This document shows, in pieces, positions 9,960 to 62,993 of a stretch of 64,000 bases of DNA. The DNA is from a virus (lineage: Duplodnaviria; Heunggongvirae; Uroviricota; Caudoviricetes). The stretch covers positions 12,067 through 76,066 of the IMG/VR virus record IMGVR_UViG_2563366840_000011; one strand, given 5' to 3'. The notes under the pieces were generated by a model. The model made no database searches and had not been told where the DNA came from. It saw only the letters and a list, made by a program, of their open reading frames with translations. Made by a program: the position numbers and the translations under genes. Within the stretch, counting starts at the first letter, position 1. Each line of letters starts with the position of its first letter.

Positions 9960-13640
<3,681 letters not shown>

Positions 13641-13666
<26 letters not shown>

Positions 13667-14186
13667 TCAGCAACCCCGGTATCAGTTCATCCAGCGCGGC
13701 TGCTTTGTTCATGGCTTTGATGATATCCCGTTTCAGGAAATCAACATGTCGGTTTTCCAGTTCCGGAAAACGCCGCTGCACCGACAGGGGGATCCCGTCG
13801 AGAATACTGGCAATTTCACCTGCGATCCGCGACAGCACGAAAGTACAGAATGCGGTTTCCACCACTTCAGCGGAGTCTCTGGCATTTTTCAGCTCCTGTG
13901 CGTCGGCCTGCGCACGCGTAAGTCGATGGCGTTCGTACTCAATAGTCCCTGGCTGGAGATCTGTCTCGCTGGCCTGCCGCAGTTCTTCAACTTCCCGGCG
14001 CAGCTTTTCGTTCTCAATTTCAGCATCCCTTTCGGCATACCATCTTATAACGGCGGCAGAGTCATAAAGCACCTCATTACCCTTGCCACCGCCTCGCAGA
14101 ACGGGCATTCCCTGTTCCTGCCAGTTCTGAATGGTACGGATACTCGCACCGAAAATGTCAGCCAGCTGCTTTTTGTTGACTTCCAT
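13641..14186 (-). CDS. Nu1: Terminase small subunit Nu1
   Basis: 181-aa ORF MEVNKKQLADIFGASIRTIQNWQEQGMPVLRGGGKGNEVLYDSAAVIRWYAERD... lambda Nu1-like, full length. Confidence 0.95.
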
Positions 14187-14199
14187 TGTTCATTCCACG

Positions 14200-14400
14200 G
14201 CCAAAAACAGAGAAAGGAAACGACAGAGGCCCAAAAGCTCGTTTTCAGCACCTGTCGTTTCCTTTCTTTTCAGGGGGTATTTTAAATAAAAACATTAAGT
14301 TACGACGAAGAAGAACGGAAATGCCTTAAACCGGAAAATTTTCATAAATAGCGAAAACCCGCGAGGTCGCCGCCCCGTAACCTGTCGGATCGCCGGAAAG
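14200..14400. other. cos site (cosB/cosN region); 12-nt cohesive-end sequence at about 14364-14375
   Basis: Plus strand reads ...gcgaaaacccgcgaggtcgccgccccgtaacctgtcggatc..., containing the reverse complement of the lambda cohesive end GGGCGGCGACCT; immediately upstream of Nu1. Confidence 0.85.
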
Positions 14401-14574
14401 GACCCGCAAAATGATAATAATTATCATCTGCATGTCACAACGTGCATCTACGCCATCAAACCACGTCAAATAATCAATTATGACGCAGATATCGTATTAA
14501 TTGATCTGCATCAACTTAACGTAAAAACAACTTCAGACAATACAAATCAGCGACACTGAATACGGGACAACCTC

Positions 14575-14808
14575 ATGTCAACGAAGAACAGAACCCGCAG
14601 AACAACAACCCGCAACATCCGCTTTCCTAACCAAATGATTGAACAAATTAACATCGCTCTTGAGCAAAAAGGGTCCGGGAATTTCTCAGCCTGGGTCATT
14701 GAAGCCTGCCGCCGGAGACTGTGCTCAGAAAAAAGAGTTTCTTCTGAAGCAAACAAAGAAAAGAGTGACATTACTGAATTGCTCAGAAAACAGGTCAGAC
14801 CAGATTGA
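14575..14808 (+). CDS. ynfO: YnfO/YlcI-like small prophage protein
   Basis: 77-aa ORF MSTKNRTRRTTTRNIRFPNQMIEQINIALEQKGSGNFSAWVIEACRRRL...; size and position next to cos match the Qin-type gene as recalled. Confidence 0.6.
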   Translation: MSTKNRTRRTTTRNIRFPNQMIEQINIALEQKGSGNFSAWVIEACRRRLCSEKRVSSEANKEKSDITELLRKQVRPD

Positions 14809-14865
14809 AGCAATTTAGATAATCGTGCAGACTACGCCCCCTCATATCACATGGAAGGTTTATCT

Positions 14866-15276
14866 ATGGATCAGGTAGTCATTTTTAAACAAATATTTGA
14901 TAAAGTTCGAAACGATTTAAACTATCAATGGTTTTATTCTGAGCTAAAACGTCACAATGTCTCACATTACATTTACTATTTAGCCACAGAGAATGTTCAT
15001 ATTGTATTAAAAAATGATAATACAGTGTTATTAAAGGGCCTAAAAAACATTGTGTCTGTCAAATTTTCAAAGGATAGGCATCTTATAGAAACGACCTCTA
15101 ATAAGCTGAAATCCAGAGAGATCACATTTCAGGAATACAGAAGAAACCTTGCTAAAGCAGGAGTTTTTCGGTGGGTTACAAATATCCACGAACAAAAAAG
15201 ATATTACTATACCTTTGATAATTCATTACTATTTACTGAAAGCATCCAGAAAACTACACAGATCTTACCACGCTAA
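14866..15276 (+). CDS. ydfO: YdfO/YbcV-like prophage protein
   Basis: ATG at 14866 giving [39 protein letters not shown]... (136 aa); AT-rich, opposite strand to the phage late genes. Confidence 0.65.
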
Positions 15277-15427
15277 ACCATAACGTCCGGCTTCTCTCAC
15301 TCCTGAGCCGGACTGCATTGGTTTAATAAAAACCATCAACAATTGTGATTTAGATATTCGGAACCATTCAAATATAACAAAACCCCGTAAAAACGAGGTT
15401 TATGGATAAATTTTATTATTGAATACA

Positions 15428-15601
15428 TCAGATTAAATTAATCTTGACATCATAGCTTTCAAGACCCGTCATTTTTTCCCGTGCGGTAAACTGAATACTG
15501 GTAACTTCTTTCCCGGTCTTTTTCTTAAGTTCAATAATTTTTTTTGTTATATATTCAGAAATATCTGCTTCTGCTTTTGTTTTTAAGTTTTCAATATTCA
15601 T
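15428..15601 (-). CDS. gnsB: GnsA/GnsB-family small protein
   Basis: Minus-strand ORF below the 60-aa track cutoff: MNIENLKTKAEADISEYITKKIIELKKKTGKEVTSIQFTAREKMTGLESYDVKINLI; Gns-family-like; alternative start one codon upstream at 15604. Confidence 0.6.
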   Translation of the reverse strand: MNIENLKTKAEADISEYITKKIIELKKKTGKEVTSIQFTAREKMTGLESYDVKINLI

Positions 15602-15772
15602 CATTTCCTCTTTTAGTCTGTTATGACTTTCCAGTTACACAGTAAGTCGATTATATGGTGCAAACGTGTAAAAGATAAGATGAAACATCGCAATAATCAA
15701 CATACGATAGTCTAAATTTTACACAAACAGACAAAGAAAATTTTCCTGAATTATCAATACAATAGCATCAAA

Positions 15773-16003
15773 TCAACTCAAGAGCCTTATTGCTGCTTCC
15801 AGAATTTCTTCTGAAGTAACATGTCGATCCGCGGCTACATAAATGACTTTATGATCTCCGGTCAGAGATGGAAACCCTGCGGCCATTACAGTAAGGTGTG
15901 TTTTTTCGCCATTTGGATATTCACGCATGATGGTGTTAACTCCAGTCATCGCTGGCACTACCACTGCAGGTTCAGAGTTAAAAAAAACTATGATTTTTTT
16001 CAT
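15773..16003 (-). CDS. Hypothetical small protein (start uncertain)
   Basis: ORF MKKIIVFFNSEPAVVVPAMTGVNTIMREYPNGEKTHLTVMAAGF...; ORF track extends to 16045, but a terminator hairpin at 16051-16069 favours the internal start. Confidence 0.4.
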   Translation of the reverse strand: MKKIIVFFNSEPAVVVPAMTGVNTIMREYPNGEKTHLTVMAAGFPSLTGDHKVIYVAADRHVTSEEILEAAIRLLS

Positions 16004-16039
16004 GATGTTACCGTAGTATGTGAGTATCCATCGAATAGA

Positions 16040-16069
16040 TACCAAGCAAAAAAGCTCCCGAAGGAGCCT
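16040..16069 (-). terminator. Rho-independent terminator downstream of cspI
   Basis: Hairpin gctcc-cgaa-ggagc at 16053-16066, followed on the minus strand by TTTTTTGC. Confidence 0.6.
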
Positions 16070-16274
16070 TCATTTTCACTTTTTTAAATCCAACGACAGA
16101 CGGCTGGCATTTAAGTATTGTGAAATATTATCAAATGTAATCATCATTGATTTACAAAAGATACATTTTGCCCCGAAAGGATTCATGTCAGAAACATCAA
16201 AAGATGATGTTCTATACTGGGAACCATGACAACACGGGCATCTAAAGTGAATATGGTTTGTAATATTGTCTACC

Positions 16275-16487
16275 TCAAAGCGCCACTACATGAACAGCGG
16301 CAGGACCTTTAGGTCCGTTCTCAATACCAAATTCAACTTCCTGATTCTCAGTTAATGTTTTGAAATCGTTGCTCTGAATTGCTGAGAAATGGACAAACAC
16401 ATCTTTGCTGCCATCTTTCGGCGTGATGAAACCAAAACCTTTTTCAGGGTTAAACCATTTCACTAAACCAGTCATTTTGTTAGACAT
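16275..16487 (-). CDS. cspI: Cold shock protein CspI-like
   Basis: 70-aa [73 protein letters not shown]; CspA-family fold, sequence as recalled for CspI; long AT-rich 5' region upstream. Confidence 0.9.
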
Positions 16488-16850
16488 AATTATTACCTTT
16501 TGAAGAAATTAGCCCTTGGGCAGAATGGTCCGAAAAAAAATATCAGAGAGAAAAACCAACAAGGAAATCTCAAGAGGTACAAATAATAAAATTATAACAA
16601 TGACTGCTTCAGATAAATTTGTAACAAACCAGAACACCATTAACGCATGATTAACCACCCATAGCAAGGATTACTTTTGTAAAGAAAAACACAGCAATGA
16701 AAGAATAGCTTTATTTATTAATAATAACGTGTCATTCTGATTAAGACCTTTTATCTTACCCTTAAGATTTCAGGAATTTTGGCTCATGGAAGAGTCCTTT
16801 TTATTTAAATTTTACATTCCGCGATGTAAATGTTCCGATTTAATATTACC

Positions 16851-17874
<1,024 letters not shown>

Positions 17875-17878
<4 letters not shown>

Positions 17879-18186
17879 ATATATTTATGATGAGGACGCT
17901 CGTGCTTATTGGCAGGATTTTCAATCTTAAAGGAGTACTGATGCTGCAGATAAGACTCAACTTTTTCTGACAATTTTTCTGCTACTTCCAGGAAGACTTG
18001 CCGGACGCTCCTTCTGGCTGCTGCCTCATAAAACTCCAGCGCAGCTCCTTCAACACGGTCCATGGCGACATCCAGGTCAAAAATTTCACCGTCAAAGCGT
18101 TCTTTGTCCTGTAAGGCTACAGTTACCGTAACTTTATTCTCAAAATTACGGACTCCTTTCACAACCAGTTCATAGTCTTGAGTCAT
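17875..18186 (-). CDS. ydfR: YdfR-like protein of unknown function inside the lysis cassette
   Basis: 103-aa ORF MTQDYELVVKGVRNFENKVTVTVALQDKERFDGEIFDL... between holin and endolysin. Confidence 0.6.
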
Positions 18187-18190
18187 TGGA

Positions 18191-18406
18191 TTACTCTCCT
18201 CTCGCAGCCTTACGCCTGTCTTCTTTAATCTTGAAATAAAGATTTGTCAGATACGTCAGCAGGCCAAAAACCAGGCTACCCAGCACACCGATTGCAGCCC
18301 ACTGTGACGGAGTTACTTTATCGAGTAACTGCAATGCCCAGAAACCAGCATTACCCGCCGATGTGCCATAGGCAACACCTGTTGTTAACTTATCCATTGA
18401 TTTCAT
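18191..18406 (-). CDS. essQ: Class II pinholin (phage 21 S-like) with dual-start motif
   Basis: ATG at 18406 gives [71 protein letters not shown] (71 aa), two TMDs, Met1/Met4 dual start; ORF track extends to 18481. Confidence 0.85.
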
Positions 18407-18625
18407 ATCCTCACCCCGATGTACACGGATGGTGCAATATGTTTGAAAAGATCGGAGTCTACGGGGTAGTTTTGACAGCACACGTTGTTCTCAACGGCGC
18501 TAAAAAAACATACACATTAAAAATGTGGGTAATTATTTTGAAAGAAAGTCATATATAAAATAATAATACGAGAAATGTTTTCATATTTAGTGTACTGTAT
18601 ACGGCCATTTATACAGGAAAAGCCT

Positions 18626-18796
18626 ATGTCAGAACGTAAAAACTCAAAATCACGCCGTAATTATCTCGTTAAATGTTCCTGCCCAAACTGCACCCAAGAG
18701 TCAGAACACAGTTTTTCAAGAGTACAAAAAGGTGCCCTTTTGATCTGCCCTCATTGCAACAAAGTATTCCAGACAAATCTTAAAGCTGTAGCCTGA
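18626..18796 (+). CDS. Hypothetical small zinc-ribbon protein (CxxC...CxxC)
   Basis: ATG at 18626 preceded by AGGAAAAG; MSERKNSKSRRNYLVKCSCPNCTQESEHSFSRVQKGALLICPHCNKVFQTNLKAVA; opposite strand to the late operon. Confidence 0.4.
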   Translation: MSERKNSKSRRNYLVKCSCPNCTQESEHSFSRVQKGALLICPHCNKVFQTNLKAVA

Positions 18797-18850
18797 TTGA
18801 TTTTATTAGTAACAAGTATTTTTTATATTTTAATAATATATTTAAAGCAG

Positions 18851-18880
18851 ATAATAAAAAACCCGCCTGAGCGGGTTTGA
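18851..18880 (-). terminator. Rho-independent terminator downstream of cspB
   Basis: Hairpin aacccgc-ctga-gcgggtt at about 18859-18878, followed on the minus strand by TTTTTTATT. Confidence 0.65.
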
Positions 18881-19159
18881 GATTGTGGTGCTTTTTGTGG
18901 GAGTCATCCACTTACGCACTTTGTTTTGCCATGCCAGCAGTTAGCTTCTGCTGTAAAACTATTCATGCAGCAAACCTGCACTTCACCACAATGGTTAGCA
19001 TACTTTTCCTGATTAAGATTTTGCCAAATATGCTAGCCATTGTTTCATGTATTGGACCTCCTTACTTTTTATTAAAGAGATCCAATATTCACTACTCTGT
19101 CCGTATCTCTACTCAGGCATCAGCCTTCTTCGTTATCGTATACAGACGAGCGATGAATT

Positions 19160-19375
19160 TTAATCAGTAATGATGACATTTGCTGCTGCAGGACCTTTAG
19201 CACCACTCTCTATAGAGAAGGTAACCTTTTGACCTTCAAATAAGGTTCGATAATTATCATTCTGAATCGCAGAAAAATGCACAAACACATCTTTACTACC
19301 ATCAACAGGAGAAATAAAGCCGAAACCTTTATCAGCGTTAAACCATTTTACTAAACCAGTCATTTTATTTGACAT
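19160..19375 (-). CDS. cspB: Cold shock protein CspB-like
   Basis: 71-aa [74 protein letters not shown]. Confidence 0.9.
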
Positions 19376-19675
19376 TCTACATTCCTTAACTTGAGCCTTT
19401 CGGCATAAATGGTTTGCATAACAGAAACGACTTCGTACTTAATTGGAGAGACTCAAAGAAGGAATAAGTGAATAACACCTGAAATGAGAACTGCTTTAGT
19501 AAACTACTTCGTATATCGTCTGTTCTTCAAACCGACGCAATCATTAACGCATAGTTGAACATATGAAGCAATGTTTATTTTAGACATCCAGCCATCTTCA
19601 ACCCCATCAAAAAACTATAGCTTTCTTCAGGAACGTGTGTATAGTGCGCCAAGTTATCAGTATTAAGGAATTTTT

Positions 19676-19888
19676 TTGTCCCGTAAAATGACAGGAATTG
19701 TCAAAACCTTTGACGGCAAAAGCGGCAAGGGTCTTATCACCCCATCCGATGGTCGTATCGATGTCCAGCTTCATGTTTCAGCGCTCAATCTCCGCGATGC
19801 AGAAGAAATTACCACCGGATTACGCGTGGAATTTTGCCGGATAAATGGTCTGCGTGGCCCTTCAGCTGCCAATGTTTACCTTTCATGA
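19676..19888 (+). CDS. cspF: Cold shock protein homolog CspF-like
   Basis: 70-aa [73 protein letters not shown]; divergent from cspB. Confidence 0.85.
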
Positions 19889-20164
19889 GCTATATTAAAG
19901 CTTTAATTTCAGGCCCCATCGGATCACACATGGAGAGTTTTTATGAATAACCCCGTCTGTCTTGATGACTGGTTGATTGGCTTTAAAAGCTTATGCTGTA
20001 CTTTGGCCGTAATAGCTCTGCTAATAATATAATAAGCAGACTCATTGTGTTTAGGGACATTGTACTGGAAGAAAACATTTTAAACATCAGGCAAATAACC
20101 AAGTCACCAGCTAAATAATAAGTTAACAGACATGAGTCCCGGGATGAGATTCAACATTACCATT

Positions 20165-20206
20165 GCCCCATTTAAAGCACAAAACCCGCTCATCAGCGGG
20201 TTTTCT
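20165..20206 (-). terminator. Candidate tR'-like terminator downstream of the late promoter (possibly bidirectional)
   Basis: Hairpin aacccgct-catc-agcgggtt at 20183-20206, followed on the minus strand by TTTTGTGCTTT; about 60 nt downstream of the candidate PR'. Confidence 0.5.
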
Positions 20207-20249
20207 ACTTTTTCTTAACGTCGGGTATACAAAGCCCATCGTTGAAAAA

Positions 20250-20278
20250 ATTTTATCCATATTTTTTGAAAAATGCAA
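20250..20278 (-). promoter_or_regulatory. Candidate PR'-like late promoter just downstream of Q
   Basis: Minus-strand TTGCAT, 17-bp spacer, TAAAAT, beginning about 30 nt after the Q stop codon. Confidence 0.5.
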
Positions 20279-20309
20279 ACATCATGTCGCCATCTTCAGC
20301 AAAAATCAT

Positions 20310-21062
20310 TTATCTCGTCACCTTCCTCAATTGCGCTTCCGCGTATGCTTCTTCCTGCCAGCACTTTGTTACCAGTTTACCAATGACGTCCGCATACCCC
20401 TTATACCACTGATAATCGGTCAGGTCTGGTACCAGCTTCTGGACATGACGTCGTGCCAGCGTGGTCGGTAAACGACTAAACCGGTTTCCATTACAACGCC
20501 CACAAATCTTATATACCGGTACGCCATGAAACCGGGTTCTTTTTTCATCCAGAACAATCCCTTTACCCTTACACCCTCTGCACGCTGTGCTGGCTTCGCC
20601 CTTACCATGGCAATGCTGACATAGTTCCTTCACCCATTCTTCCTTGATTACAGATTCCCCGCGTCTGTAGTGTTTCACCACTTCGCGCAATACATTATAA
20701 AATCCCGTACCTGAACAATGCTCACAGCGAGCCTTACTTGCCGCAGACCTGGAGTAATCAGCAAAGGCAAAACTCACGAGGTAAGGAATAATCTGTAACC
20801 GGATTTCTTCACTCAATTTGTTCAATGTCGGGTTATCCAGTGCCATCGCGTAATTTAGCAGGCCTTCAATCGCAAACTGAGGGTCCTGAACACCAACTTT
20901 TGCCAGAAATAAGGCCAACCCAAGTGGTGCTTTCGACTGCACCATCCCCTGCGCTGCCATTACATCCGTAATTGTTAAACAACCGGTGCCTGTCGCTGGA
21001 GCGTCATCGCTCAATTTTGGAGATTTTGGGGAGTAATATTTTGGTAAGGCTTCAAGGTTCAT
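20310..21062 (-). CDS. quuQ: Late antiterminator Q (Qin-type)
   Basis: From ATG at 21062: MNLEALPKYYSPKSPKLSDDAPATGTGCLTITDVMAAQGMV... (250 aa) with Cys-rich zinc-binding region; upstream of the lysis cassette. Confidence 0.85.
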   Translation of the reverse strand: MNLEALPKYYSPKSPKLSDDAPATGTGCLTITDVMAAQGMVQSKAPLGLALFLAKVGVQDPQFAIEGLLNYAMALDNPTLNKLSEEIRLQIIPYLVSFAFADYSRSAASKARCEHCSGTGFYNVLREVVKHYRRGESVIKEEWVKELCQHCHGKGEASTACRGCKGKGIVLDEKRTRFHGVPVYKICGRCNGNRFSRLPTTLARRHVQKLVPDLTDYQWYKGYADVIGKLVTKCWQEEAYAEAQLRKVTR

Positions 21063-37345: not shown

Positions 37346-37822
37346 ATGTCCACGCCAGCAAAACGAGGCCTTATAGGGGCAATTAAAGCCGGTCAGGCAT
37401 ATCTGGGGTGGGATGAGGTAACCTACCGTAGTGTTCTGTCTCGCTTATGCAACGGTAAAACATCATCCACTAAATGCACCCTCGACGAGCTGCAGGCTGT
37501 CAGGGAATATATGCATGACAAGGGTTTTCCTCGCTACTCAGCAAAACACGGTCGACGCCCAAAGGTTGCCAATACGCGCGAGTCAATTCTTTCTAAAATT
37601 AACGCATTACTTGCAGATGCAAAACGTCCGTGGAATTATGCCGAGAAAATGTGCGATCATATGTTTCACGTCAAATACATCGAGTGGTTGACGACTGAAC
37701 AGTTAACCAAACTCATGCAGGCTCTCAGCATTGATGCGAGTCGGCGAAAAAAGCGGGAGCGTAATAATGAATCTGGAACAGGTAACGGAGCTGCTGCCAT
37801 CAGCAGTGATTCAAATAGCTGA
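37346..37822 (+). CDS. GemA-like (Mu gp16-like) protein
   Basis: ATG at 37346 after AGGAG: MSTPAKRGLIGAIKAGQAYLGWDEVTYRSVLSRL..., the L-I-x-x-I-K...LGWDE-x-TYR pattern seen in GemA-family proteins; directly precedes mor. Confidence 0.6.
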   Translation: MSTPAKRGLIGAIKAGQAYLGWDEVTYRSVLSRLCNGKTSSTKCTLDELQAVREYMHDKGFPRYSAKHGRRPKVANTRESILSKINALLADAKRPWNYAEKMCDHMFHVKYIEWLTTEQLTKLMQALSIDASRRKKRERNNESGTGNGAAAISSDSNS

Positions 37823-38201
37823 CCTGATAGGCTTCCCGGCGACCGAGCAGCTTCTTTCTGCTTTTGGTGGCACCACGTTCCCGATAGGTAAAGGCCTCCG
37901 CGCTATGGGGGCCAGCCGCGCAGCCCTCCTGCGCAATACTATCGGCGATGATAAAACCCAATTACTCATCAAGAATTTCGGCGGAGAAGTTCTCTATTTA
38001 CCCCGCTGTGATCGTGCCCTTCGTGAATTACGCAACCGCCGCTTTCTCGCCGAGTTCGCCGAAGTGCGTGAACAAGGTTCATCCTCTCTTATGGCCATGA
38101 CCTTTCTTTGCCCTAAGTATGGATTTAGTGATCGCTTTGCGTGGGAACTTCTTGCACAGCAGAAAAACAAAGGTTGTAACAGTCAAGGAAAATTATTCTA
38201 A
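37767..38201 (+). CDS. Mor/C-family transcriptional activator
   Basis: ATG at 37767: MNLEQVTELLPSAVIQIADLIGFPATEQLLSAFGGTTFPIGKGL...LYLPRCDRALRELRNRRFLAEF...YGFSDRFAWELL (C-terminal HTH-like); between gemA and the late region. Confidence 0.7.
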   Translation: MNLEQVTELLPSAVIQIADLIGFPATEQLLSAFGGTTFPIGKGLRAMGASRAALLRNTIGDDKTQLLIKNFGGEVLYLPRCDRALRELRNRRFLAEFAEVREQGSSSLMAMTFLCPKYGFSDRFAWELLAQQKNKGCNSQGKLF

Positions 38202-38707
38202 TGCGCAATACAATGAGATATATGGCATTTTTCTTGGTGGTATTTAGTACTACTGTAGTGGCAAAAACAGTACCCAATACAAAAGCAGTTGAAACTTATA
38301 AAAATCAACTTGAGGAAACTAAGAGAATATTTAATGAAACGCAGAGCACTTTAATGGGTGCAACTGCTGTTTTTGATATGTACAAGAGTCTGGGATATCT
38401 TACACCTGAAGTTGTTGCAGTGAGTCGTCATTTCCTCCTCCTTGATGAGGATGCGAAAAAATTGTATGGGGAGAATCTTCTTTTAAACCCTACACCTTTT
38501 AGCTCTTGTGCTACGTTACCAGCAGCAGCTTACTCATATTGGATGGCAAGGCTATCTTCATTAAAAACTGATAATGTTAAGGCTGTGAATGCGCAGGGTG
38601 AATCATACATAAAACAGGGTAAGGAATGTAAATTTGCAATTAACAACCCACCTCCCTCGCATATTGAAGAAAGTGATTATGTAGAGATAATTGATGTTAC
38701 TCAATAA
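38201..38707 (+). CDS. AT-rich moron: predicted secreted/periplasmic protein of unknown function
   Basis: 168-aa ORF MRNTMRYMAFFLVVFSTTVVA|KTVPNTK... with a signal-peptide-like N-terminus and 2 Cys; codon usage visibly more AT-rich than flanking genes. Confidence 0.55.
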   Translation: MRNTMRYMAFFLVVFSTTVVAKTVPNTKAVETYKNQLEETKRIFNETQSTLMGATAVFDMYKSLGYLTPEVVAVSRHFLLLDEDAKKLYGENLLLNPTPFSSCATLPAAAYSYWMARLSSLKTDNVKAVNAQGESYIKQGKECKFAINNPPPSHIEESDYVEIIDVTQ

Positions 38708-38708
38708 A

Positions 38709-38726
38709 CCACTGAACCCCTTCACC
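38709..38726 (+). promoter_or_regulatory. Conserved late box, copy 1 (upstream of endolysin), candidate late promoter/activator site
   Basis: CCACTGAACCCCTTCACC, then GATTAT, then inverted repeat cgccatcc/ggatggcg (38758-38783) covering the SD region before ATG 38786. Confidence 0.5.
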
Positions 38727-38785
38727 TGATTATTCACCTAACCTGATGAAATACTGACGCCATCCCTTTTTAACCGGATGGCGTT

Positions 38786-39430
38786 ATGCTTTTAACACTC
38801 CCACAATTTCAGCGAGCCGCAGGCCTTTCGCCAGTAATGGCGCAACGCTGGTTTGAACCATTCAGTAAAGCCACCGCTGAATTCGAAATTAATACACCCG
38901 CCCGACTTGCCGCCTTTATTGCTCAAACCGGCCATGAGAGCGCGGGTTTCAGTCGGCTCAGTGAAAATCTCTATTACTCAGATGCTGAGCGCGTGGCGCG
39001 TATTTTCCGCAGCGACTTCGATCTCAATAAGAATCGTATTATCGATCCGAGCGAGGTTGAATTTGCCCGCCGCTATACCCGTAACCCTGAAAAAATGGCC
39101 AATTATGTTTACGCAAATCAGGGGGGTAACGGTAATGAAGCATCAGGCGATGGCTGGCGCTTTCGCGGACGTGGCCTGATTCAGATTACCCTGCGCAATA
39201 ATTACCGCCTTTGCGGTAAGGCGCTGGGCCTCGATCTCATCGCGGATCCCGATTTGTTACTGGAGTATCTCAACGCAGCCCGCAGCGCTGCCTGGTACTG
39301 GAAGGCAAATGGCTGCAACGAGCTGGCTGACAAAGGCAATTTTCTGGCCGTAACCCGGCGTATCAACCCTCCGGCTGAAGGTCAGGCTGACCGCGTGGCG
39401 CGGCTGAATGTCGCTAAGGCGGCGCTATGA
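38786..39430 (+). CDS. Endolysin, glycoside hydrolase family 19 (chitinase-like) type
   Basis: 214-aa ORF ...ARLAAFIAQTGHESAGFSRLSENLYYS...GRGLIQITLRNNYRLCGKALGLDL...: GH19-lysin-like motifs; followed by membrane proteins and spanins. Confidence 0.75.
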   Translation: MLLTLPQFQRAAGLSPVMAQRWFEPFSKATAEFEINTPARLAAFIAQTGHESAGFSRLSENLYYSDAERVARIFRSDFDLNKNRIIDPSEVEFARRYTRNPEKMANYVYANQGGNGNEASGDGWRFRGRGLIQITLRNNYRLCGKALGLDLIADPDLLLEYLNAARSAAWYWKANGCNELADKGNFLAVTRRINPPAEGQADRVARLNVAKAAL

Positions 39431-39690
39431 AAATATCTCTGCGCGATCTGGTGACGAACCCGGCCACCGGTCGTCTCTCTACGTCAGACACCATCGTTTT
39501 TCTGGCCTTCCTGGTCAGTTCCTTCGTACTGGTCTGGCTCACCGTTACCCGCCCCGAAACTCCTGGTGAGCTGTATCTCACCTATCTGGGCGCGTGGGTG
39601 GCTCAGAGTCAGGCATCAAAACATATGTCCATCAAACGAGCCAGAGAGGTGCGCGATGTGGGAAGCAGCCCAGAAAATCCTGAGGGTTAG
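39427..39690 (+). CDS. Small single-TMD membrane protein (candidate holin or lysis accessory)
   Basis: 87-aa ORF with TMD IVFLAFLVSSFVLVWLTV; directly after the endolysin. Confidence 0.45.
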   Translation: MKISLRDLVTNPATGRLSTSDTIVFLAFLVSSFVLVWLTVTRPETPGELYLTYLGAWVAQSQASKHMSIKRAREVRDVGSSPENPEG

Positions 39691-40288
39691 CTGGAAACCG
39701 CTGCTCGTCGTCGTGGTTCTGACAGGCAGCGGGATATGGTTCGGCACCTTCCTCACAGGCAACAAGCTGGACGCTCAGGCGCTGGCCTTCAGCCAGGAGA
39801 AGCAACGCCTGACTGATGGTTTCAGTGAAAAAGAACGGCAGTGGGATCAGGAGAGGCTCGGCGCTGCAAATCAGTATGCAGCTAACCTGAAGGCTGCACT
39901 TGATAAGCAGAACGCCTGGCAGCAGAAAGCGGATGCGCTGACCCGCGAGCTGGCTGAAAAGCAAAAGGCACATGACGAGACTGTTCGCGATCTTAAAAAG
40001 AGGCTTAAAGATGCACTTGATAAAGATGGTCCTGGTTATACCGGCATTGGCCCTGGCGGCCTGCAGCTCTTCCGTGAAGCCTTTGGCTACTCAGGATCCG
40101 AAAGCCTCCCCGCTGGTCAGCATCTGCCAGCCACCGCCAGCGGCGCTCCTGGTCATACCGGCCAGACCACAGGCACCGGTGGCGGACTCTCCCCCACTGG
40201 AATAGTGTCGTTTTCAGCGGAATACGGCGCATGGTGCCAGCTCATTGAGGGCAGGCTGCAGGCAATAAATGAGTATTACAGGAAGTGA
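39656..40288 (+). CDS. i-spanin (Rz-like)
   Basis: ATG at 39656 after GAGG: MWEAAQKILRVSWKPLLVVVVLTGSGIWFGTF... N-terminal TMD then coiled-coil-like region (...QERLGAANQYAANLKAALDKQNAWQQKADALTRELAEKQKAHDETVRDLKKRLKD). Confidence 0.7.
   Translation: MWEAAQKILRVSWKPLLVVVVLTGSGIWFGTFLTGNKLDAQALAFSQEKQRLTDGFSEKERQWDQERLGAANQYAANLKAALDKQNAWQQKADALTRELAEKQKAHDETVRDLKKRLKDALDKDGPGYTGIGPGGLQLFREAFGYSGSESLPAGQHLPATASGAPGHTGQTTGTGGGLSPTGIVSFSAEYGAWCQLIEGRLQAINEYYRK
40011..40205 (+). CDS. o-spanin (Rz1-like lipoprotein) embedded in the i-spanin +1 frame
   Basis: MHLIKMVLVIPALALAAC SSSVKPLATQDPKASPLVSICQPPPAALLVIPARPQAPVADSPPLE: lipobox LAAC, Pro-rich mature part; start could be 40026. Confidence 0.65.
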   Translation: MHLIKMVLVIPALALAACSSSVKPLATQDPKASPLVSICQPPPAALLVIPARPQAPVADSPPLE

Positions 40289-46864: not shown

Positions 46865-46882
46865 CCACTGAACCTCTTCATC
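46865..46882 (+). promoter_or_regulatory. Conserved late box, copy 2 (upstream of protease/scaffold gene), candidate late promoter/activator site
   Basis: CCACTGAACCTCTTCATC, then inverted repeat tggtgccg/cggcacca (46898-46919) abutting ATG 46919; lies in a 370-bp intergenic gap. Confidence 0.5.
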
Positions 46883-53386: not shown

Positions 53387-55528
53387 ATGGCGCGTAACTT
53401 ACAACTGGCGCTGCAGCTGCTTGCCCGTGATACCGGCTCCAAAGTGCTTAAACAGGCACTGCAGGGCATCAGCCGGGATACCAAAGCGGCGCAAAAAACC
53501 GATGATGAGCTGGCGAAATCCCGTCAGCAGAACTCGACCACAGCGATTCGTGCCTCCCGTTCTCTGATTGAGGAATACCGTCGCGCCAGTTCGGCGCGAG
53601 CAACTCTTGGCATTCGCTCAGAGCGCGAAATACAGCGCGAAATACAGCAGACCATGGCGGCCTATAATCGCCTTACCCGCACAGGTATGCTGTCCGCAAA
53701 TGAGCAGAACCGGGCTTTCAGGGCCATGACTGACAGGGTCAAAGCGCTGCGAACTGAGCTTGGCGGCGTCAATGACTCAATGACGCGCATGCAGCGATTC
53801 CGTGCTGCAGGTTCAACCGTGGCAGCAGTAGCCGGTGGGTTAACTGCTGCGGGTATGATTATAAAAGACCCGGTTCAGCGTCAGATGGCTTACGAACGGC
53901 GTAATGCTGAGATTGCAAATACCGCTTATAACAATCTCTCCGCACCAGACCGTATTAAGAAAATACCTGAGATCAATAATGCAATCCGTGGGGCTGTACG
54001 TTATGGCGGTGGAACGCCAGAGGCCGCACAGGAAACCATTAATTCACTTTTCGCAGGTGGTCTTGATGATAAAACGGCATTAAAAATATTGCCTAATATT
54101 ACTCGTTACGCTACTGCTTCAGGCGCAAATCCGAATGACCTTGCGCGTATTGCTATTGGTGCAATTAAGAACTTTGATATAAAGGCTGAGGATTTACCAG
54201 CGGTATTTGATAAAACCATCAGGTCTGGTGAGAACGGTAAATATGAACTCGCTGATATGGCTGGCTCATTACCATTAACCATGACAAAAGCAAACTCTGT
54301 AGGTATGTCAGGGTTAAAAGATTTGGATGTCATTCTCGCGATGTTACAGGCTAACGCTGAAACAGCAGGTGATAATAGCGCTGCATCAACAAACGTTAAT
54401 AACTTGCTTGATAAATACACCAGTGCTGACACTCAGAATGCGTTAAAAAATAAAAGATTCAGGACTAAAGACGGGAGGATGCTTGCCTATGCTGATTATA
54501 TGGCTGACCAGCGACTTTCAGGAGTGAATACTTCTGATGCATTCACTAATGCTGTATCAGGTATTGTTTCAGCAGACCCACGAGTTAAGAAATTACGGGC
54601 TCAGGCTACCAAATTCAAAGGGACGGACAAGGAGAAAGACATTCTTGCCTCACTGGATATTATTGTTTCCTCCATTACGTCAAAAATAGTTGCTGACCAG
54701 CAGGCCAGTACTGCACTAAAAACAAGCATAATGAAAAAAGACTTCATTAAGGAGCAAATTTCAGGAACACGTGATTCTGTCGGTGCTGGTGCAGCCTCAT
54801 ATGAGGTTATGTCGTCAACAAATGATTTTAAGTCACAACAATTTGAGTCAGAGAAAATGTTTTCTGAACAGGACGCAATGAAACCTGTTGCCGATTTATA
54901 CGGTGATTTGACGTCAAAACTCACCGATTACGCTAAAGAATATCCTGAGCTAACCACGGCTATTTCTGGTGCCACTACTGGCATTAAAGCCATGACAGCG
55001 GCTGCGGTAGCTTTTGCCGGGCTCAACTTTCTGACGGGCGGTGGAATAAAAATGCCAGGCTCTCCTGGAGGTGGAGTGCCACCTGCAGGAGGATCTGCTC
55101 TGGGGCGTGCATGGTCCGTTATTCGTGGCGGAGCTGGCAAGATATTAGCTCCACTGGCTCTTTATCAGGGTATGCAGGATGCCCCACTCGTTCACGTTGA
55201 GCGAGGTGATTCAAATGCACGTTCGCGCCTTAAGGTTGACAATTATTCAAGTCAATCAGAGCGAATGTTGGATGCTGTTAAAGCCCGCCCAGGATTGCTG
55301 GATGCCGTGGATGAGATCAAATCATGGTGGAGTTCTCCGGCCACAGTGGGGCAAAACACACCAGCCACAACAGGCGTACCGTCTTATCTGTTGCCTCAGC
55401 AGCAACAAAAGCCTCAGCCAGTAAACATCACAACTAAAGTCATGCTCGATGAGCGTCAGATTGCCGAGGCCGTCAATCAGTATAATGGCGATCAATCCGT
55501 TCGCGGCTCAACAGGAGGTCCACAGTGA
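53387..55528 (+). CDS. Tail tape measure protein
   Basis: 713-aa ORF after the chaperone genes; central region more AT-rich; C-terminus Gly-rich. Confidence 0.85.
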   Translation: MARNLQLALQLLARDTGSKVLKQALQGISRDTKAAQKTDDELAKSRQQNSTTAIRASRSLIEEYRRASSARATLGIRSEREIQREIQQTMAAYNRLTRTGMLSANEQNRAFRAMTDRVKALRTELGGVNDSMTRMQRFRAAGSTVAAVAGGLTAAGMIIKDPVQRQMAYERRNAEIANTAYNNLSAPDRIKKIPEINNAIRGAVRYGGGTPEAAQETINSLFAGGLDDKTALKILPNITRYATASGANPNDLARIAIGAIKNFDIKAEDLPAVFDKTIRSGENGKYELADMAGSLPLTMTKANSVGMSGLKDLDVILAMLQANAETAGDNSAASTNVNNLLDKYTSADTQNALKNKRFRTKDGRMLAYADYMADQRLSGVNTSDAFTNAVSGIVSADPRVKKLRAQATKFKGTDKEKDILASLDIIVSSITSKIVADQQASTALKTSIMKKDFIKEQISGTRDSVGAGAASYEVMSSTNDFKSQQFESEKMFSEQDAMKPVADLYGDLTSKLTDYAKEYPELTTAISGATTGIKAMTAAAVAFAGLNFLTGGGIKMPGSPGGGVPPAGGSALGRAWSVIRGGAGKILAPLALYQGMQDAPLVHVERGDSNARSRLKVDNYSSQSERMLDAVKARPGLLDAVDEIKSWWSSPATVGQNTPATTGVPSYLLPQQQQKPQPVNITTKVMLDERQIAEAVNQYNGDQSVRGSTGGPQ

Positions 55529-56856
55529 GCTGGGAAGATTCATTACAGGATGCCTCATTCAGGGGCGTCCGCTTCGATGTGGTTAATACCCGTGACAGCG
55601 CCAGCCGCGACATTGCGACGTATGAGTATCCCTATGTCGACGGTGGTGATGTTGATGACCTTGGCCGCAAGCCTCGTAACCTGAGAATGACGGTCCTTTT
55701 CTGGGGTGACGATTACGATGTGCGACTCCAGGCGTTTCTGGCCGCGCTGGATACACGCGGCAGCGCGGAGTTAATACACCCGGTTTTCGGCTCCATGACG
55801 GGCATGCAGTGCATTGAGTATCAGGCATCGCATGAAGCGGAGAACGTTGATTACTGCGTTGTCGAAGTGGTCTTTATCCAGGGGGGACTTAATCTGCCTT
55901 TCTTTGGCAGCGACTTCCCGCTGTCGAAAGCCGATATCATTTTCAACCAGGCGCAATCCGCTCTGGAGAAAGCCCAGACAGCCATCGACAATATTCTCTC
56001 GCCTCTGCGTACAGCGAAAAAGTGGATGAAGAAAGCGAAATCGCTGGCAACAACGACGCTGAATATGGTGACCATGCTTAAGGGGGAACTGACAGGATTT
56101 GTCAGTACCACCTCGGATTTTGTTAATTATCCGAAAGCGTTCATGAATGATCTGCAGAGTGCGCTGAGCCTGACGTCGCTTCAGTCCAAATCAAGTGTCA
56201 GTAATAACCCAGGAAGCTATTCACAGTCCTCAGACGTTTCCGGTACAGCGGGCATCGTGATGGCCGACTGGAAGAATGGCCGTAACAATCTGCAGGAGGT
56301 GGCCGCATTACCTCAGCAAATCGTGACCGGGCAAAAGACGGTTGCTGTTGCTGTTCCGGCAGGCTCATCAACCTCGGATATTACTGAGGTGGTAACGGCG
56401 GTAAAAATCCAGGTTGCAATCCAGCTGGCGCTTGATGCTTCCGACATACTCAGTGACAGCAGCATCAGCGATATTCTGTCTCCAGTCGATATTGAGCAGA
56501 TCACCAACGATACCAGGACGGCCATTCAGACGGCAATCGACCAGACGCGGGACACCTTTGCTGCCGATACGCAAAACGTGAGCGCCGGTGAAACACCGGC
56601 TGGCGTGACATGGCAACCCGTGGTTGAAAGCCTCAAGGATATCGCCCTGACCGTTCAGGAGCTGGGCGCAGCGGTTATTACCAGCAGACCGCCACTGACG
56701 ACGCGAGTGATATTGGCCGACACCAACCTGCATTTGCTGGCCCATCTGTGGTACGAGGACTACACCCGCGCCACCGAGTTGTTGCGTCTCAATCCGACAC
56801 TACGTAATCCTAACAACATCAAAGCCGGTGACGTTCTGAATGCCTACTCAAGATAA
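55525..56856 (+). CDS. DNA circularisation protein (Mu N-like)
   Basis: GTG start after AGGAGG; 443-aa ORF MSWEDSLQDASFRGVRFDVVNTRDSASRDIATYEYPYVDGGDVDDLGRKPRNLRMTVLFWG... Confidence 0.8.
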   Translation: MSWEDSLQDASFRGVRFDVVNTRDSASRDIATYEYPYVDGGDVDDLGRKPRNLRMTVLFWGDDYDVRLQAFLAALDTRGSAELIHPVFGSMTGMQCIEYQASHEAENVDYCVVEVVFIQGGLNLPFFGSDFPLSKADIIFNQAQSALEKAQTAIDNILSPLRTAKKWMKKAKSLATTTLNMVTMLKGELTGFVSTTSDFVNYPKAFMNDLQSALSLTSLQSKSSVSNNPGSYSQSSDVSGTAGIVMADWKNGRNNLQEVAALPQQIVTGQKTVAVAVPAGSSTSDITEVVTAVKIQVAIQLALDASDILSDSSISDILSPVDIEQITNDTRTAIQTAIDQTRDTFAADTQNVSAGETPAGVTWQPVVESLKDIALTVQELGAAVITSRPPLTTRVILADTNLHLLAHLWYEDYTRATELLRLNPTLRNPNNIKAGDVLNAYSR

Positions 56857-58057
56857 AGATTCGCAGAATACAGTGAGCCTGGTTATTGATGGCAAAATCC
56901 ACAGTGCATGGAGCCGCTATCAGATTGACTCCGATTTTCTTATCCCCTCCGATGCCTGGAGTGTAACGCTTGGGCTGCCTGATGGTATTTTCCCTCCGGC
57001 CATTAAACGTGGTGTGCCGGTGCTGGTCAGGGTGGGTAATGATGTTGTCATGTCCGGTCGGGTGGATGTGGTTCAGCGCCGGGTATCCCGTCAGCAGGTT
57101 TCTTTATCTCTTTCCGGTCGCGATGGTGCAGCCGTGCTTGTTGACTGCGCTTCACCCGTTTTTACCTCCCGCCAGCTCAGTCTTGAAGAGGTGATCGCCC
57201 AGGTTGTCAGACCGCTGGGGATAACGAACATCCGCATCGAGGCTGAATCATCCCTGCGTAATGACAAGGTCAGCGTGGAGCCCGGAGAACGTGCGTGGGA
57301 TACCCTTGAGCGTGCAGCTGCTGCACGCGGGTTATGGCCATGGTTTGAGCCAGATGGCACGCTGGTAATTGGAGGGCCGGATTACACAAAAGACCCTGTA
57401 GCCACGCTTGTTCTGAATCGTGACGGTCGGGGAAATAATGTCCTCGATCTCAGTGACCGGTCATCCATTACCGGTGCGTTCTCTGAACTGACAATGCTGG
57501 CACAGGGACACGGCCAGGGGAAAAAGTCAGGAAGACTGGAAGTTATTGACGTTGATGATCAGAGCGCTGAGGCTGAAGACGATGATGATGCCGACGCAAT
57601 TTATGACAGCACCGGCTCTGCAGAGAATGGCTTTCATGGCTTACGTAGTACCGTTCGCGACAGTACCGTACCTTTCTATCGTCCGCAGATTATGGTTGCT
57701 GGTGATGCTGATAATCAGGCGCAGGTTGATTATCGCGCGAGAAAGGCCATGGCTGACGCCCGTCTGAACGGGTTTGATCTGACAGTAATTGTTAAAGGCC
57801 ATCGCATGGAGAACGGTCAGTTATGGCAACCGGGCCAGCGTATTCGTGTCCGAAGCGAGCCGCATGGCATTGATGACATTTACTTCCTCATGGGAAGAGA
57901 GTTTTCAGGTGGTCGTCCAGACAACACCATTACCACCCTGCGGCTCAAAGAGGATGGAATATGGATACCGGATGCTTATCCGAAAAAACGCAAATCACGT
58001 AAGCGTCGCGCCAAAGTAAATAAAGAGCTGGAGATTATCGATGTGGAACAAAATTGA
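56840..58057 (+). CDS. Tail/baseplate hub protein (Mu P-like)
   Basis: 405-aa ORF MPTQDKDSQNTVSLVIDGKIHSAWSRYQIDSDFLIPSDAWSVTLGLPDG... Confidence 0.8.
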   Translation: MPTQDKDSQNTVSLVIDGKIHSAWSRYQIDSDFLIPSDAWSVTLGLPDGIFPPAIKRGVPVLVRVGNDVVMSGRVDVVQRRVSRQQVSLSLSGRDGAAVLVDCASPVFTSRQLSLEEVIAQVVRPLGITNIRIEAESSLRNDKVSVEPGERAWDTLERAAAARGLWPWFEPDGTLVIGGPDYTKDPVATLVLNRDGRGNNVLDLSDRSSITGAFSELTMLAQGHGQGKKSGRLEVIDVDDQSAEAEDDDDADAIYDSTGSAENGFHGLRSTVRDSTVPFYRPQIMVAGDADNQAQVDYRARKAMADARLNGFDLTVIVKGHRMENGQLWQPGQRIRVRSEPHGIDDIYFLMGREFSGGRPDNTITTLRLKEDGIWIPDAYPKKRKSRKRRAKVNKELEIIDVEQN

Positions 58058-58682: not shown

Positions 58683-58700
58683 CCACTGAACCCCTTCACC
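58683..58700 (+). promoter_or_regulatory. Conserved late box, copy 3 (upstream of gp46-like baseplate gene), candidate late promoter/activator site
   Basis: CCACTGAACCCCTTCACC, immediately followed by GATAAT, then 10-bp perfect inverted repeat TTCCATGCCG/CGGCATGGAA (58713-58741) containing the first ATG. Confidence 0.55.
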
Positions 58701-61387: not shown

Positions 61388-61828
61388 ATGAATTACATAT
61401 ATTCCGCGACTACAAACTCTTTCTATCCGCTGGAGATGAAAGAGGATTACACTCAAGCTGACTCATGGCCAGATGATGCTGTTGAAGTTGATGAGCAAGT
61501 GTATATTGAGTTTTCCGGATTACCGCCGAAAGGAAAAATCCGTATCGCTGGAGAAAATGGTTTTCCTGCATGGTCTGAAATTCCACCACCAACATATGAG
61601 GAACAGATTGCTGCAGCCGAACTGGAAAAGCAGCAACTGATTAATCAGGCCAACGAATACATGAACAGTAAGCAATGGCCCGGTAAAGCCGCTATTGGTC
61701 GTCTGAATGGTGAGGAACTGGCGCAATATAATTTGTGGCTGGATTATCTGGATGCACTGGAGCTGGTTGATACTTCCGGTGCGCCAGATATTGAATGGCC
61801 TACGCCTCCGGCAGTTCAGGCCAGATGA
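61388..61828 (+). CDS. Tail fibre assembly protein (Mu U-like)
   Basis: 146-aa ORF MNYIYSATTNSFYPLEMKEDYTQADSWPDDAVEVDEQVYIEFSGLPPKGK... Confidence 0.8.
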   Translation: MNYIYSATTNSFYPLEMKEDYTQADSWPDDAVEVDEQVYIEFSGLPPKGKIRIAGENGFPAWSEIPPPTYEEQIAAAELEKQQLINQANEYMNSKQWPGKAAIGRLNGEELAQYNLWLDYLDALELVDTSGAPDIEWPTPPAVQAR

Positions 61829-62411
61829 CATCCGGCGCGGTGCTGGTATCTGTTGCCGTCACCGCGTCAATGTAATCCAGCACAGCGTTAAGGCGGGTTG
61901 TTTCTGCCTGCGTCAGTTTACGTCCGGCCTGCAATTTCAGCTGAATCAGACTGATGGAGGCCATTGCAGTATCAATCAGCGACTGGCGCTGTGCTTCTGC
62001 TGCATCTACTGCTGCGCCGTGCTGTGCCTCGGTATCCGTCACCCATTTCTCACCATCCCATTTATCGTATGGGGTTAACGGGGCGATAGTGGTTGTATTA
62101 TCAGGGTAATCACCCGGAGCTGTGATTTCTTTTGATTCCCCTGTTTCGGTGCTAAAAACGATTTCACCGCGATGGTCTGGCATATATTCCCATGATTTTA
62201 AATCTGCTGAACGGCAGATAGTATAACCAGCCTTATATGTACCAGGAGCATCTAAACAGGAATACGCCGGAATACCGACGCCGACAGCGAGATATTCAGT
62301 TGATGTAGAAATATATTCCCGCGTTTCTCCGTTGTAGTTGTAAACGGTAATAAAGCCAGCTTCCGTGGCAAATCCGTTTTCATCCAAAGTGATTTTTTTT
62401 GTGGTCATCAT
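61800..62411 (-). CDS. Alternative tail fibre assembly protein (U'-like), inverted orientation
   Basis: 203-aa minus-strand ORF MMTTKKITLDENGFATEAGFITVYNYNGETREYISTSTEYLAVG...; convergent with the plus-strand assembly gene. Confidence 0.75.
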   Translation of the reverse strand: MMTTKKITLDENGFATEAGFITVYNYNGETREYISTSTEYLAVGVGIPAYSCLDAPGTYKAGYTICRSADLKSWEYMPDHRGEIVFSTETGESKEITAPGDYPDNTTTIAPLTPYDKWDGEKWVTDTEAQHGAAVDAAEAQRQSLIDTAMASISLIQLKLQAGRKLTQAETTRLNAVLDYIDAVTATDTSTAPDVIWPELPEA

Positions 62412-62956
62412 GATGCCCTTACAATGTAGTTAAATGCAATGTTACGTGGTCGGTTTTCTTCCGCAGTTGGTACAACTCTGGCGGCGGAAAAACCTACGTC
62501 ATACCTATTACCGGGCGATGAGGTTGTTTGACCAGCGCCGCCTTCGTATACAGCATTAAATGGCCCTGTTACCCACTCGTCTGCTGTCCTCTGGCTTCCC
62601 GCAGTGGTCATAAGTCCCAAGAGCTTCCCTGATATGTCCCTTATAGCATCACCTTGTGCGGACAGCAGCGCTCGCCCTGAATCGACCCCACGCCCGTCAT
62701 CCCAGCCACGAATAAACTCACCACGTAAATCTGGCAATTTATTTGTCGGATAAACTTTTGCCAGTTCCGGATACTCTTCGGCAGAAAAAGGTGCACCATT
62801 GCATTTCAGCCAGCCTGTTGGCGGAGTGGCTGAAGGCCACGGAACAGGCACGCCAACGGGTAATGCCGAACCTTCTCCCAAACCAACCTTTTGTGGATTG
62901 AGATTTTTAATGTCAGCGAAGCTCTTCGTCAAAAGTGAAACTCTGATAACCTGGTT
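62408..62956 (-). CDS. Alternative tail fibre variable C-terminal segment (Sv'-like) lacking its own start
   Basis: Minus-strand frame open from the stop at 62957-62959: NQVIRVSLLTKSFADIKNLNPQKVGLGEGSALPVGVPVPWPSATPPTGWLKCNGAPFSAEEYPELAKVYP...; no ATG or SD at its 5' end. Confidence 0.65.
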   Translation of the reverse strand, partial: NQVIRVSLLTKSFADIKNLNPQKVGLGEGSALPVGVPVPWPSATPPTGWLKCNGAPFSAEEYPELAKVYPTNKLPDLRGEFIRGWDDGRGVDSGRALLSAQGDAIRDISGKLLGLMTTAGSQRTADEWVTGPFNAVYEGGAGQTTSSPGNRYDVGFSAARVVPTAEENRPRNIAFNYIVRAS

Positions 62957-62993
62957 CTACTGACGAACAGAAGGATAAGCAGGAGATCGCTTT

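Follow-up and report, generated by a model that had tools for sequence, protein, structure and literature searches.

An AT-rich gene between mor and the endolysin gene of a Mu-like prophage encodes a predicted periplasmic protein, possibly a superinfection-exclusion factor that mimics a baseplate-hub motif

The passage of DNA from contractile-tailed phages such as Mu across the periplasm and the inner membrane after spike shedding is poorly understood, and few superinfection-exclusion proteins have a defined target. Here we describe a small AT-rich gene, called gene X in the following, of a Mu-like prophage located in a stretch of 64,000 nucleotides (the window; Caudoviricetes, IMG/VR record IMGVR_UViG_2563366840_000011, positions 12,067 to 76,066). 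The prophage extends from its repressor/transposase end at about 29.5–32.5 kb to an invertible tail-fibre segment with an invertase gene at 61.8–63.6 kb. Around gene X, the genes are arranged in the order GemA, Mor, X, GH19 endolysin, DUF2644, and a candidate i-spanin open reading frame (ORF) with an embedded lipobox ORF (candidate o-spanin). The gene and the parts of its product are listed below in window coordinates, with lengths in amino acids (aa) and confidence as the predicted local distance difference test score (pLDDT) of AlphaFold2.

38201..38707, + strand: gene X, 168-aa predicted secreted protein of the PHROG 29261 family (ORF list, PHROG 29261 profile match)
38201..38263, + strand: predicted Sec-type signal peptide M1–A21, cleavage between VVA and KT (rule-based: n/h/c pattern, –3/–1 rule, 26 homologues)
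38264..38644, + strand: predicted up-down four-helix bundle (AlphaFold2, core pLDDT 92–97)
38507–38509 and 38627–38629, + strand: invariant cysteines C103 and C143 (alignment)
38645..38704, + strand: flexible C-terminal tail consisting of NPPP, an acidic stretch, V161-E-I-I-D-V166 (38681–38698), and TQ (pLDDT 35–43)

An earlier note on this DNA, made from the letters alone, had described a 168-aa ORF that starts on the last base of the mor stop codon and ends just upstream of the first late promoter, and both statements are confirmed. The ATG of X (38201–38203) and the TAA of mor (38199–38201) share one base (TAATG), and a single base separates the stop codon of X (38705–38707) from a box of 16 nucleotides (nt), CCACTGAACCCCTTCA, that begins at 38709. 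Most homologues use an alternative start, which lies at 38213 in X and would yield a protein of 164 aa. The AT-richness remarked on in the note was borne out by a windowed analysis of the G + C (GC) content. Gene X has 37.1% GC (27.8% at third codon positions), compared with 47–57% in the adjacent genes and a mean of 53.0% (standard deviation 4.6%) in the prophage part of the window, where only 0.09% of all 507-nt windows were as low.

Gene X is a genuine coding gene, as documented by its PHROG match, conserved core residues, substitution pattern, and confidently predicted core. The hidden Markov model (HMM) of PHROG 29261 matched residues 5–168 of X with positions 1–159 of the 161 in the profile (E = 1.2e-41); the match is full-length, yet the family is uncharacterised, and membership tells nothing about mechanism. 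The ratio of non-synonymous to synonymous substitution rates (dN/dS) of X against its close relatives was 0.13–0.44, a range based on few substitutions, and that of the neighbouring genes was 0.02–0.17; the values of X are above those of the neighbours but below 1 and indicate purifying selection. One viral contig (L092, 2416–2922) carries gemA, mor, lys, and DUF2644 identical to those in the window and a version of X with six substitutions (two non-synonymous, four synonymous).

When 1.8 billion representative proteins were searched exhaustively with an HMM, just 30 matches at E < 1e-3 were obtained, and the family is therefore small. All relatives found with the family profile bear the source name 'hypothetical protein'. 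Scans of X against Pfam and NCBIfam produced nothing significant, a scan against the anti-phage defence components in PADLOC-DB matched no family at E ≤ 1, and a sequence-profile search of the PDB gave no match; fold and profile searches likewise yielded no functional match. At the nucleotide level, megablast of the region against phage genomes found no matches, tblastn against phage genomes retrieved one phage, Klebsiella ST405-OXA48phi1.1, and a scan of genome contigs with patterns derived from X recovered no relatives.

The N-terminus of X, MRNTMRYMAFFLVVFSTTVVA followed by KT, combines a basic n-region with a hydrophobic core of 13 residues and has small residues at –3/–1 (V-V-A). Written as MRNTMRY-MAFFLVVFSTTVV-A with K after the cleavage site, it agrees by inspection with the features of Sec export (basic n-region, h-region of 10–15 residues, small residues at –3/–1, no lipobox cysteine). 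The n/h/c layout and an A-x-A-like site are maintained in all 26 aligned family members despite differing residues; two distant members have a lipobox instead. The signal-peptide-like N-terminus and the two cysteines reported in the note thus both hold, the former by rule-based assignment and the latter as residues that are invariant in the family. Only three columns of the 26-sequence alignment are invariant, namely an asparagine just past the cleavage site and the two cysteines, which are C103 and C143 in X and become C99 and C139 when counted on the 164-aa form; G86, P95, W110, and one proline of the NPPP segment are nearly so.

AlphaFold2 places the four helices at residues 22–60, 65–85, 102–119, and 122–144 (164-aa numbering), with low confidence for the signal peptide and the last ~15 residues. 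In this model, one cysteine lies where helix 3 starts and the other near the end of helix 4; both are at the same end of the bundle and probably staple the two helices together, which, judged from the predicted topology, would fit a periplasmic disulfide. Together, these features suggest that X is a Sec-exported, soluble periplasmic protein of ~147 residues after cleavage. Four-helix-bundle sensor domains of chemoreceptors and histidine kinases (Tar, Tsr, PcaY, McpN, TorS) resemble X in shape but share only 4–9% identity with it; X lacks their flanking transmembrane (TM) helices and any detectable sequence relationship with them, and the likeness is generic for long up-down bundles. Periplasmic lysozyme inhibitors (Ivy, PliC/MliC, PliG, PliI) have beta or alpha/beta folds. 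None of these families matched X in Pfam or NCBIfam, and the predicted fold of X is all-alpha. Distant homologues of the X family on two contigs (L173, 1469–2194; L178, 5001–5747) are lipoproteins of 241–248 aa in a chromosomal, non-phage setting between rarA and smc, with lolA upstream in L178; their presence near smc hints at a cellular origin of the fold.

The order GemA–Mor–X–endolysin is kept in four relatives in which the identity of X declines to 29%: a Cedecea prophage (61%), Klebsiella phage ST405-OXA48phi1.1 (42%), and two metagenomic contigs (36% and 29%). Longer members of the X family also directly follow Mor; one precedes an Amidase_2 endolysin and another a 177-aa protein, followed by DUF2644. 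Since this order holds in divergent relatives, X is an old resident of the slot between Mor and the endolysin and not a recent arrival. Between relatives, X is only 32–36% identical, compared with 65–72% for Mor and 59–71% for Lys. In an E. coli prophage (FDAARGOS) whose flanks are 96% identical, the slot encodes an unrelated signal-peptide protein of 159 aa, which was rejected as a remote homologue of X (hhalign probability 1%).

For a census of the slot, 160 loci around endolysin homologues were collected and the 50 loci with Mor upstream were analysed. The gap between Mor and lys is 360–626 base pairs and is never empty. It is filled by five unrelated families:

Slot family 1: X / PHROG 29261, 24 loci, signal peptide
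Slot family 2: PHROG 5882, 12 loci, signal peptide (proteins that by our reading look Sel1-like)
Slot family 3: three-TM membrane protein, 9 loci, membrane
Slot family 4: PHROG 36303, 4 loci, signal peptide
Slot family 5: TM plus zinc-ribbon protein, 1 locus, membrane

Every one of the 50 slot proteins is predicted to be targeted to the envelope by a signal peptide or TM segments, and in all 50 loci the slot gene has a lower GC content (0.32–0.43) than the locus (0.47–0.54). Phages whose endolysin is 95–100% identical to that in the window carry family 1, 2, or 3. By these comparisons, the slot is a cassette-exchange hotspot for envelope proteins, and the turnover of unrelated proteins in it appears accessory and arms-race-like. 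The low GC content is a standing property of the slot, and the time of an acquisition in this phage therefore cannot be read from composition. This bears on the separate horizontal acquisition proposed in the note, which receives support from the exchange of unrelated slot genes beside nearly identical endolysins, and is qualified by the long residence of the X family and the slot-wide low GC content. The annotation logic is corrected by this result even if the function of X should prove mundane. In one relative (contig L172, 2725–5636), the region after Mor is expanded and encodes a TM protein and a long form of X together with a lipoprotein, a zinc-ribbon protein that also has a TM segment (GC 0.34), and the abortive-infection gene putAbiC.

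Expression of X has to be considered together with the signals on either side of it. The adjoining features are:

37767..38201, + strand: Mor/C-family activator, 144 aa from MNLEQV, stop overlapping the start of X (Pfam PF08765; PHROG 836, 'late transcriptional activator')
38709..38756, + strand: late-promoter block consisting of the box CCACTGAACCCCTTCA, a spacer of ~26 nt, and ATACTG (alignment of relatives)
38755..38786, + strand: hairpin, –17.4 kcal/mol, z = –5.4, ending 1 nt before the endolysin ATG (RNA folding)
38786..39430, + strand: GH19 endolysin, first gene of the late lysis cassette, without signal or signal-anchor-release sequence (Pfam/PHROG matches)

The box CCACTGAACCCCTTCA is present in three copies in the window (38709–38724; 46865–46880, with one mismatch; 58683–58698), which are probably the sites where the activator acts on three late promoters; no copy is located upstream of X. 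The three boxes lead us to propose a two-tier cascade from early to late genes under a single Mor/C-family activator, unlike the three tiers of Mu. A consensus scan revealed no sigma-70-like promoter upstream of X, and no terminator was found between mor and X. There is also no candidate for a Mor-dependent middle promoter of X, as there is no intergenic space between the two genes and the only activator boxes are the three of the late type. Because of the TAATG overlap and the lack of a sigma-70-like promoter or a late box upstream, X is best read as the last cistron of an early operon that ends with mor, and it appears to be translationally coupled to mor. The term moron used in the note therefore fits only in part: X is a variable and compositionally odd accessory gene, but it is not an autonomous unit, being coupled to mor, with no sigma-70-like promoter upstream in the consensus scan and no terminator between mor and X.

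The hairpin in front of the endolysin gene begins within the –10-like ATACTG, and there is no Shine–Dalgarno sequence outside it. In five divergent relatives, this position is likewise taken by a hairpin, formed by other stem sequences (–14.7 to –19.3 kcal/mol; folded as single sequences, with stems and loops that differ in register between relatives). It may control the translation or the transcript ends of the lysis cassette.

At the C-terminus of X-family proteins, an acidic stretch precedes (L/V)-x-I-I-D-V-(T/D/E). The same ending is found in the long forms of the unrelated PHROG 5882 family (e.g., ELEIIDVTK). Among 19 distinct tails, I-I-D-V is kept with all three isoleucine, both aspartate, and all four valine codons in use. 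The limits of the promoter block were determined by aligning the 125 nt upstream of lys in 33 loci; in every cassette type the block starts directly past the stop codon of the slot gene, and the tail-less families have unrelated DNA where the tail codons would be. The possibility that the IIDV codons are conserved as part of the late promoter was rejected on these grounds. As the codons vary synonymously and the block begins past the stop, the constraint is on the peptide and not on the DNA. The three-TM proteins of slot family 3 (L093, L097, L115, L126, L128) have a different acidic-plus-hydrophobic tail (EEKDQFVVQFDN, DQFVVQFDN), which may be an analogous C-terminal strand motif.

The same motif is found in the tail of the phage particle, within the predicted baseplate hub:

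56840..58057, + strand: Mu gp44/GpP-like baseplate hub, 405 aa (four diagnostic Pfam domains)
57536–57553, + strand: internal hub motif L233-E-V-I-D-V238, followed by an acidic run
58028–58045, + strand: C-terminal hub motif L397-E-I-I-D-V402, preceded by a polybasic linker

The hub terminates in ...KKRKSRKRRAKVNKELEIIDVEQN. Among the 476 ORFs of at least 40 aa in a six-frame translation of the window, only two contain the strict motif [ILV]-x-I-[IV]-D-V, namely X and the hub, both at the extreme C-terminus (0.056 such C-terminal hits are expected). A relaxed motif adds only the internal hub copy (GRLEVIDVDD, then the acidic run) and one ORF outside the prophage. Both copies are conserved in ~80 hub homologues from IMG/VR and in 35 diverse homologues from Enterobacterales; the internal copy consists of a basic patch, L-x-[IV]-[IV]-D-V, and acidic residues, and the C-terminal copy of a polybasic linker and L-x-I-[IV]-D-V-E. 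Mu gp44, which is 24% identical to the hub, has neither copy. The two copies within one hub tend to share the variable residue (LE/LE, LG/LG, TA/TA). When contigs were matched between the lys-based and hub-based sets of loci, the hub motifs were present whichever slot family the phage carried. In the AlphaFold monomer of the hub, the segments with the motifs (225–265 and 373–405) are unpaired and flexible (pLDDT 25–36); the models thus suggest flexibility of the tail of X and of both hub segments.

We tentatively propose, with somewhat less than even confidence, that X is expressed early, resides in the periplasm, and excludes superinfecting phages by acting on their incoming tail tip through mimicry of the hub motif. 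Superinfection exclusion or periplasmic defence, already among the guesses of the earlier note, is still the best guess, to which the match with the hub motif adds one new support. In the Mu virion, the C-terminal domain of the hub contacts the spike's N-terminus and the tape measure protein's C-terminus and is proposed to gate their release (PMC11915804). In the mechanism that we envisage, these three parts would form a plug that must open for DNA delivery. X would be made soon after induction or infection and would target, from the periplasm, the tail tip of incoming related phages; its tail would serve as a decoy or competitor that sequesters a hub strand or occupies the docking site of the motif, and the variable helical body would provide specificity or a second contact. 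Because X would be periplasmic and virion assembly is cytoplasmic, X would encounter the motif, or whatever the motif binds, only on a tail that is entering, so that assembly of the phage's own particles would be undisturbed. A wider version, in which X and the unrelated PHROG 5882 proteins are modular periplasmic decoys, each with a variable body and a copied hub motif L-x-I-I/V-D-V that jams the opening or docking of the tail tips of sister phages, is possible but more doubtful.

Several points weigh against exclusion by hub mimicry. The motif has only five to six residues and is beta-strand-like; it may reflect convergence or a generic strand for oligomerisation. The hub motif also occurs in phages with a tail-less slot protein (families 3–5), and mimicry therefore cannot explain every cassette. 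No docking of the motifs is seen with AlphaFold, in a monomer run in which the relevant segments are of low confidence. The tail common to families 1 and 2 could have arisen by recombination in tail-coding DNA beside the conserved promoter. In addition, the chromosomal lipoprotein homologues near smc mean that the fold also has a non-phage role. Finally, the residue before I-I in tail-bearing slot proteins is E in 8 of 10 phages with an 'LE' hub and A, G, or Q in all six with an 'LG/TA' hub; this tracking of the hub type speaks for mimicry but is suggestive only, as the count ignores shared ancestry.

The explanation that competes best takes the EIIDV tail as a generic beta-strand, used in self-association or in Ton-box-like docking to a host periplasmic protein, and its likeness to the hub as coincidence or convergence. 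It would account for a short motif of common beta-formers, for the acidic residues that precede it in X where basic ones precede the C-terminal hub copy, for the deviating tail of family 3 (DQFVVQFDN), and for the lack of pairing in AlphaFold. We nevertheless consider it unlikely because the strict motif is confined to the C-termini of X and the hub among the six-frame ORFs, is lineage-specific in both proteins, and has a variable position that tracks between them. Even then, X may still be a defence or exclusion protein, only not via hub mimicry. The likelihoods expressed here are rough and not meant to sum to unity; the generic strand overlaps with our proposal in the exclusion role.

It is less probable still that X is a periplasmic regulator of lysis timing in the adjacent cassette, such as an antiholin, a lysis-inhibition sensor, or a modulator of spanin or endolysin. 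T4 RI is a helical periplasmic antiholin, genes of the X family always lie directly upstream of lysis genes (GH19, Amidase_2, or the 177-aa protein plus DUF2644), and gp19 and gp20 of Mu, at the equivalent position, were once proposed to be a holin/antiholin pair. X itself is located outside the late operon, upstream of the late promoter, and unrelated proteins replace one another in its slot between near-identical phages whose holin, endolysin, and spanin genes stay the same. The presence of several endolysin classes beside X argues against a specific enzyme inhibitor, and an inhibitor specific to GH19 endolysins was set aside since family members also precede an Amidase_2 endolysin. Moreover, inactivation of Mu gp19/gp20 causes no lysis defect (PMC9239132). 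Similarly improbable is a factor for lysogenic conversion or host fitness that alters the envelope with respect to colicins, effectors of type VI secretion systems, serum, or stress and is not directed against phages; such a role is disfavoured by the location of X in a repressed early operon. That the AT-rich DNA itself is selected, as an insulator (H-NS-bound or curved) that separates the early operon from the lysis promoter, and that the ORFs are carried along as passengers, would agree with the low GC content in all 50 loci across five unrelated families but is very improbable in view of intact ORFs under purifying selection, conserved cysteines and core residues, a confident fold, and a tail conserved at the protein and not at the DNA level; a role of the DNA could coexist with that of the protein but cannot replace it.

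Outside the slot, the prophage has several further features. The candidate i-spanin ORF (39566–40288) contains, out of frame, the lipobox ORF (39972–40205; LAAC before S), and we regard the two as an embedded spanin pair, as in Mu and lambda. The DUF2644 protein (39427–39690) is likely the holin. Apart from the slot, the prophage has just one strongly AT-rich stretch (GC < 0.42; 53900–55000); it lies inside the tape-measure gene (53387–55528), which suggests a mosaic or exchanged segment at the centre of this gene. Two tail-fibre-related ORFs on the minus strand beside a serine invertase gene (62994–63554) occupy positions 61800–63554, a region that looks like an invertible host-range switch of the Mu G-segment type. 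Host genes restart at ~63656, and a block of 34–48% GC upstream of the prophage (14000–21000) may be another island.

An AT-rich accessory gene for a secreted protein is ordinary in a prophage. Out of the ordinary are a junction reserved strictly for envelope proteins throughout a widespread Mu-like lineage of enterobacteria, a conserved tail common to two unrelated folds, and the match of this tail to a lineage-specific, duplicated motif of the baseplate hub. The status of the Mor–endolysin junction as a dedicated exchange site for envelope-acting accessory proteins holds whatever the mechanism; the junction is useful for mining new exclusion and defence functions and bears on the prediction of cross-immunity among prophages in Klebsiella, Enterobacter, E. 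coli, and related genera. If the proposed function is true, the hub contains a conserved, flexible motif that should matter for genome delivery and was previously unnoticed, X is a natural inhibitor for trapping the delivery step, and superinfection exclusion can operate by mimicry of a self motif directed at the tail tip.

Among known systems, Mu itself offers the positional counterpart. The earlier note had placed X where Mu carries C, which is correct in part, as the interval between mor and the late lys promoter of Mu comprises a separate middle operon of gp18, gp19 (four TM segments), gp20 (one TM segment), and C. Both gp19 and gp20 are located in the envelope, can be dispensed with, and have no known function (PMC9239132). 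They resemble X in genomic position and envelope location but are not homologous to it, and they are transcribed together with C from a separate Mor-dependent middle promoter; the phage in the window has a single Mor/C-family activator and no middle promoter. AT-richness was rejected as a mark of the equivalent Mu genes (GC 0.53–0.54 in gp18 and gp19; only gp20 is low at 0.42).

Ltp of phage TP-J34 targets the tape measure protein. Together with HK97 gp15 and T5 Llp, it resembles the proposed X as an accessory envelope exclusion protein, moron-type or early and encoded at a variable position, that blocks DNA entry at the step of tail tip, membrane, or receptor (PMC3594210, PMC9586334). The three have other folds and locations (inner-membrane protein or lipoprotein) than the soluble periplasmic bundle predicted for X. 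Unlike X, which is coupled to mor, HK97 gp15 is produced in lysogens and has a promoter of its own. Spackle (gp61.3) of T4 is helical and contains a disulfide. X shows no sequence or fold match to it and is twice as large; its proposed target is a linear motif of the hub and not, as for Spackle, a lysozyme domain, and the tail tip of this phage is without a recognised lysozyme. Spackle is made early and binds gp5, the tail-spike protein, in the periplasm (PMC7677548), and the likeness to the proposed X lies in the strategy, in which a small Sec-exported early protein excludes related phages via their incoming tail tip, at the lysozyme domain of gp5 in the case of T4 (PMC7677548, PMC7650644).

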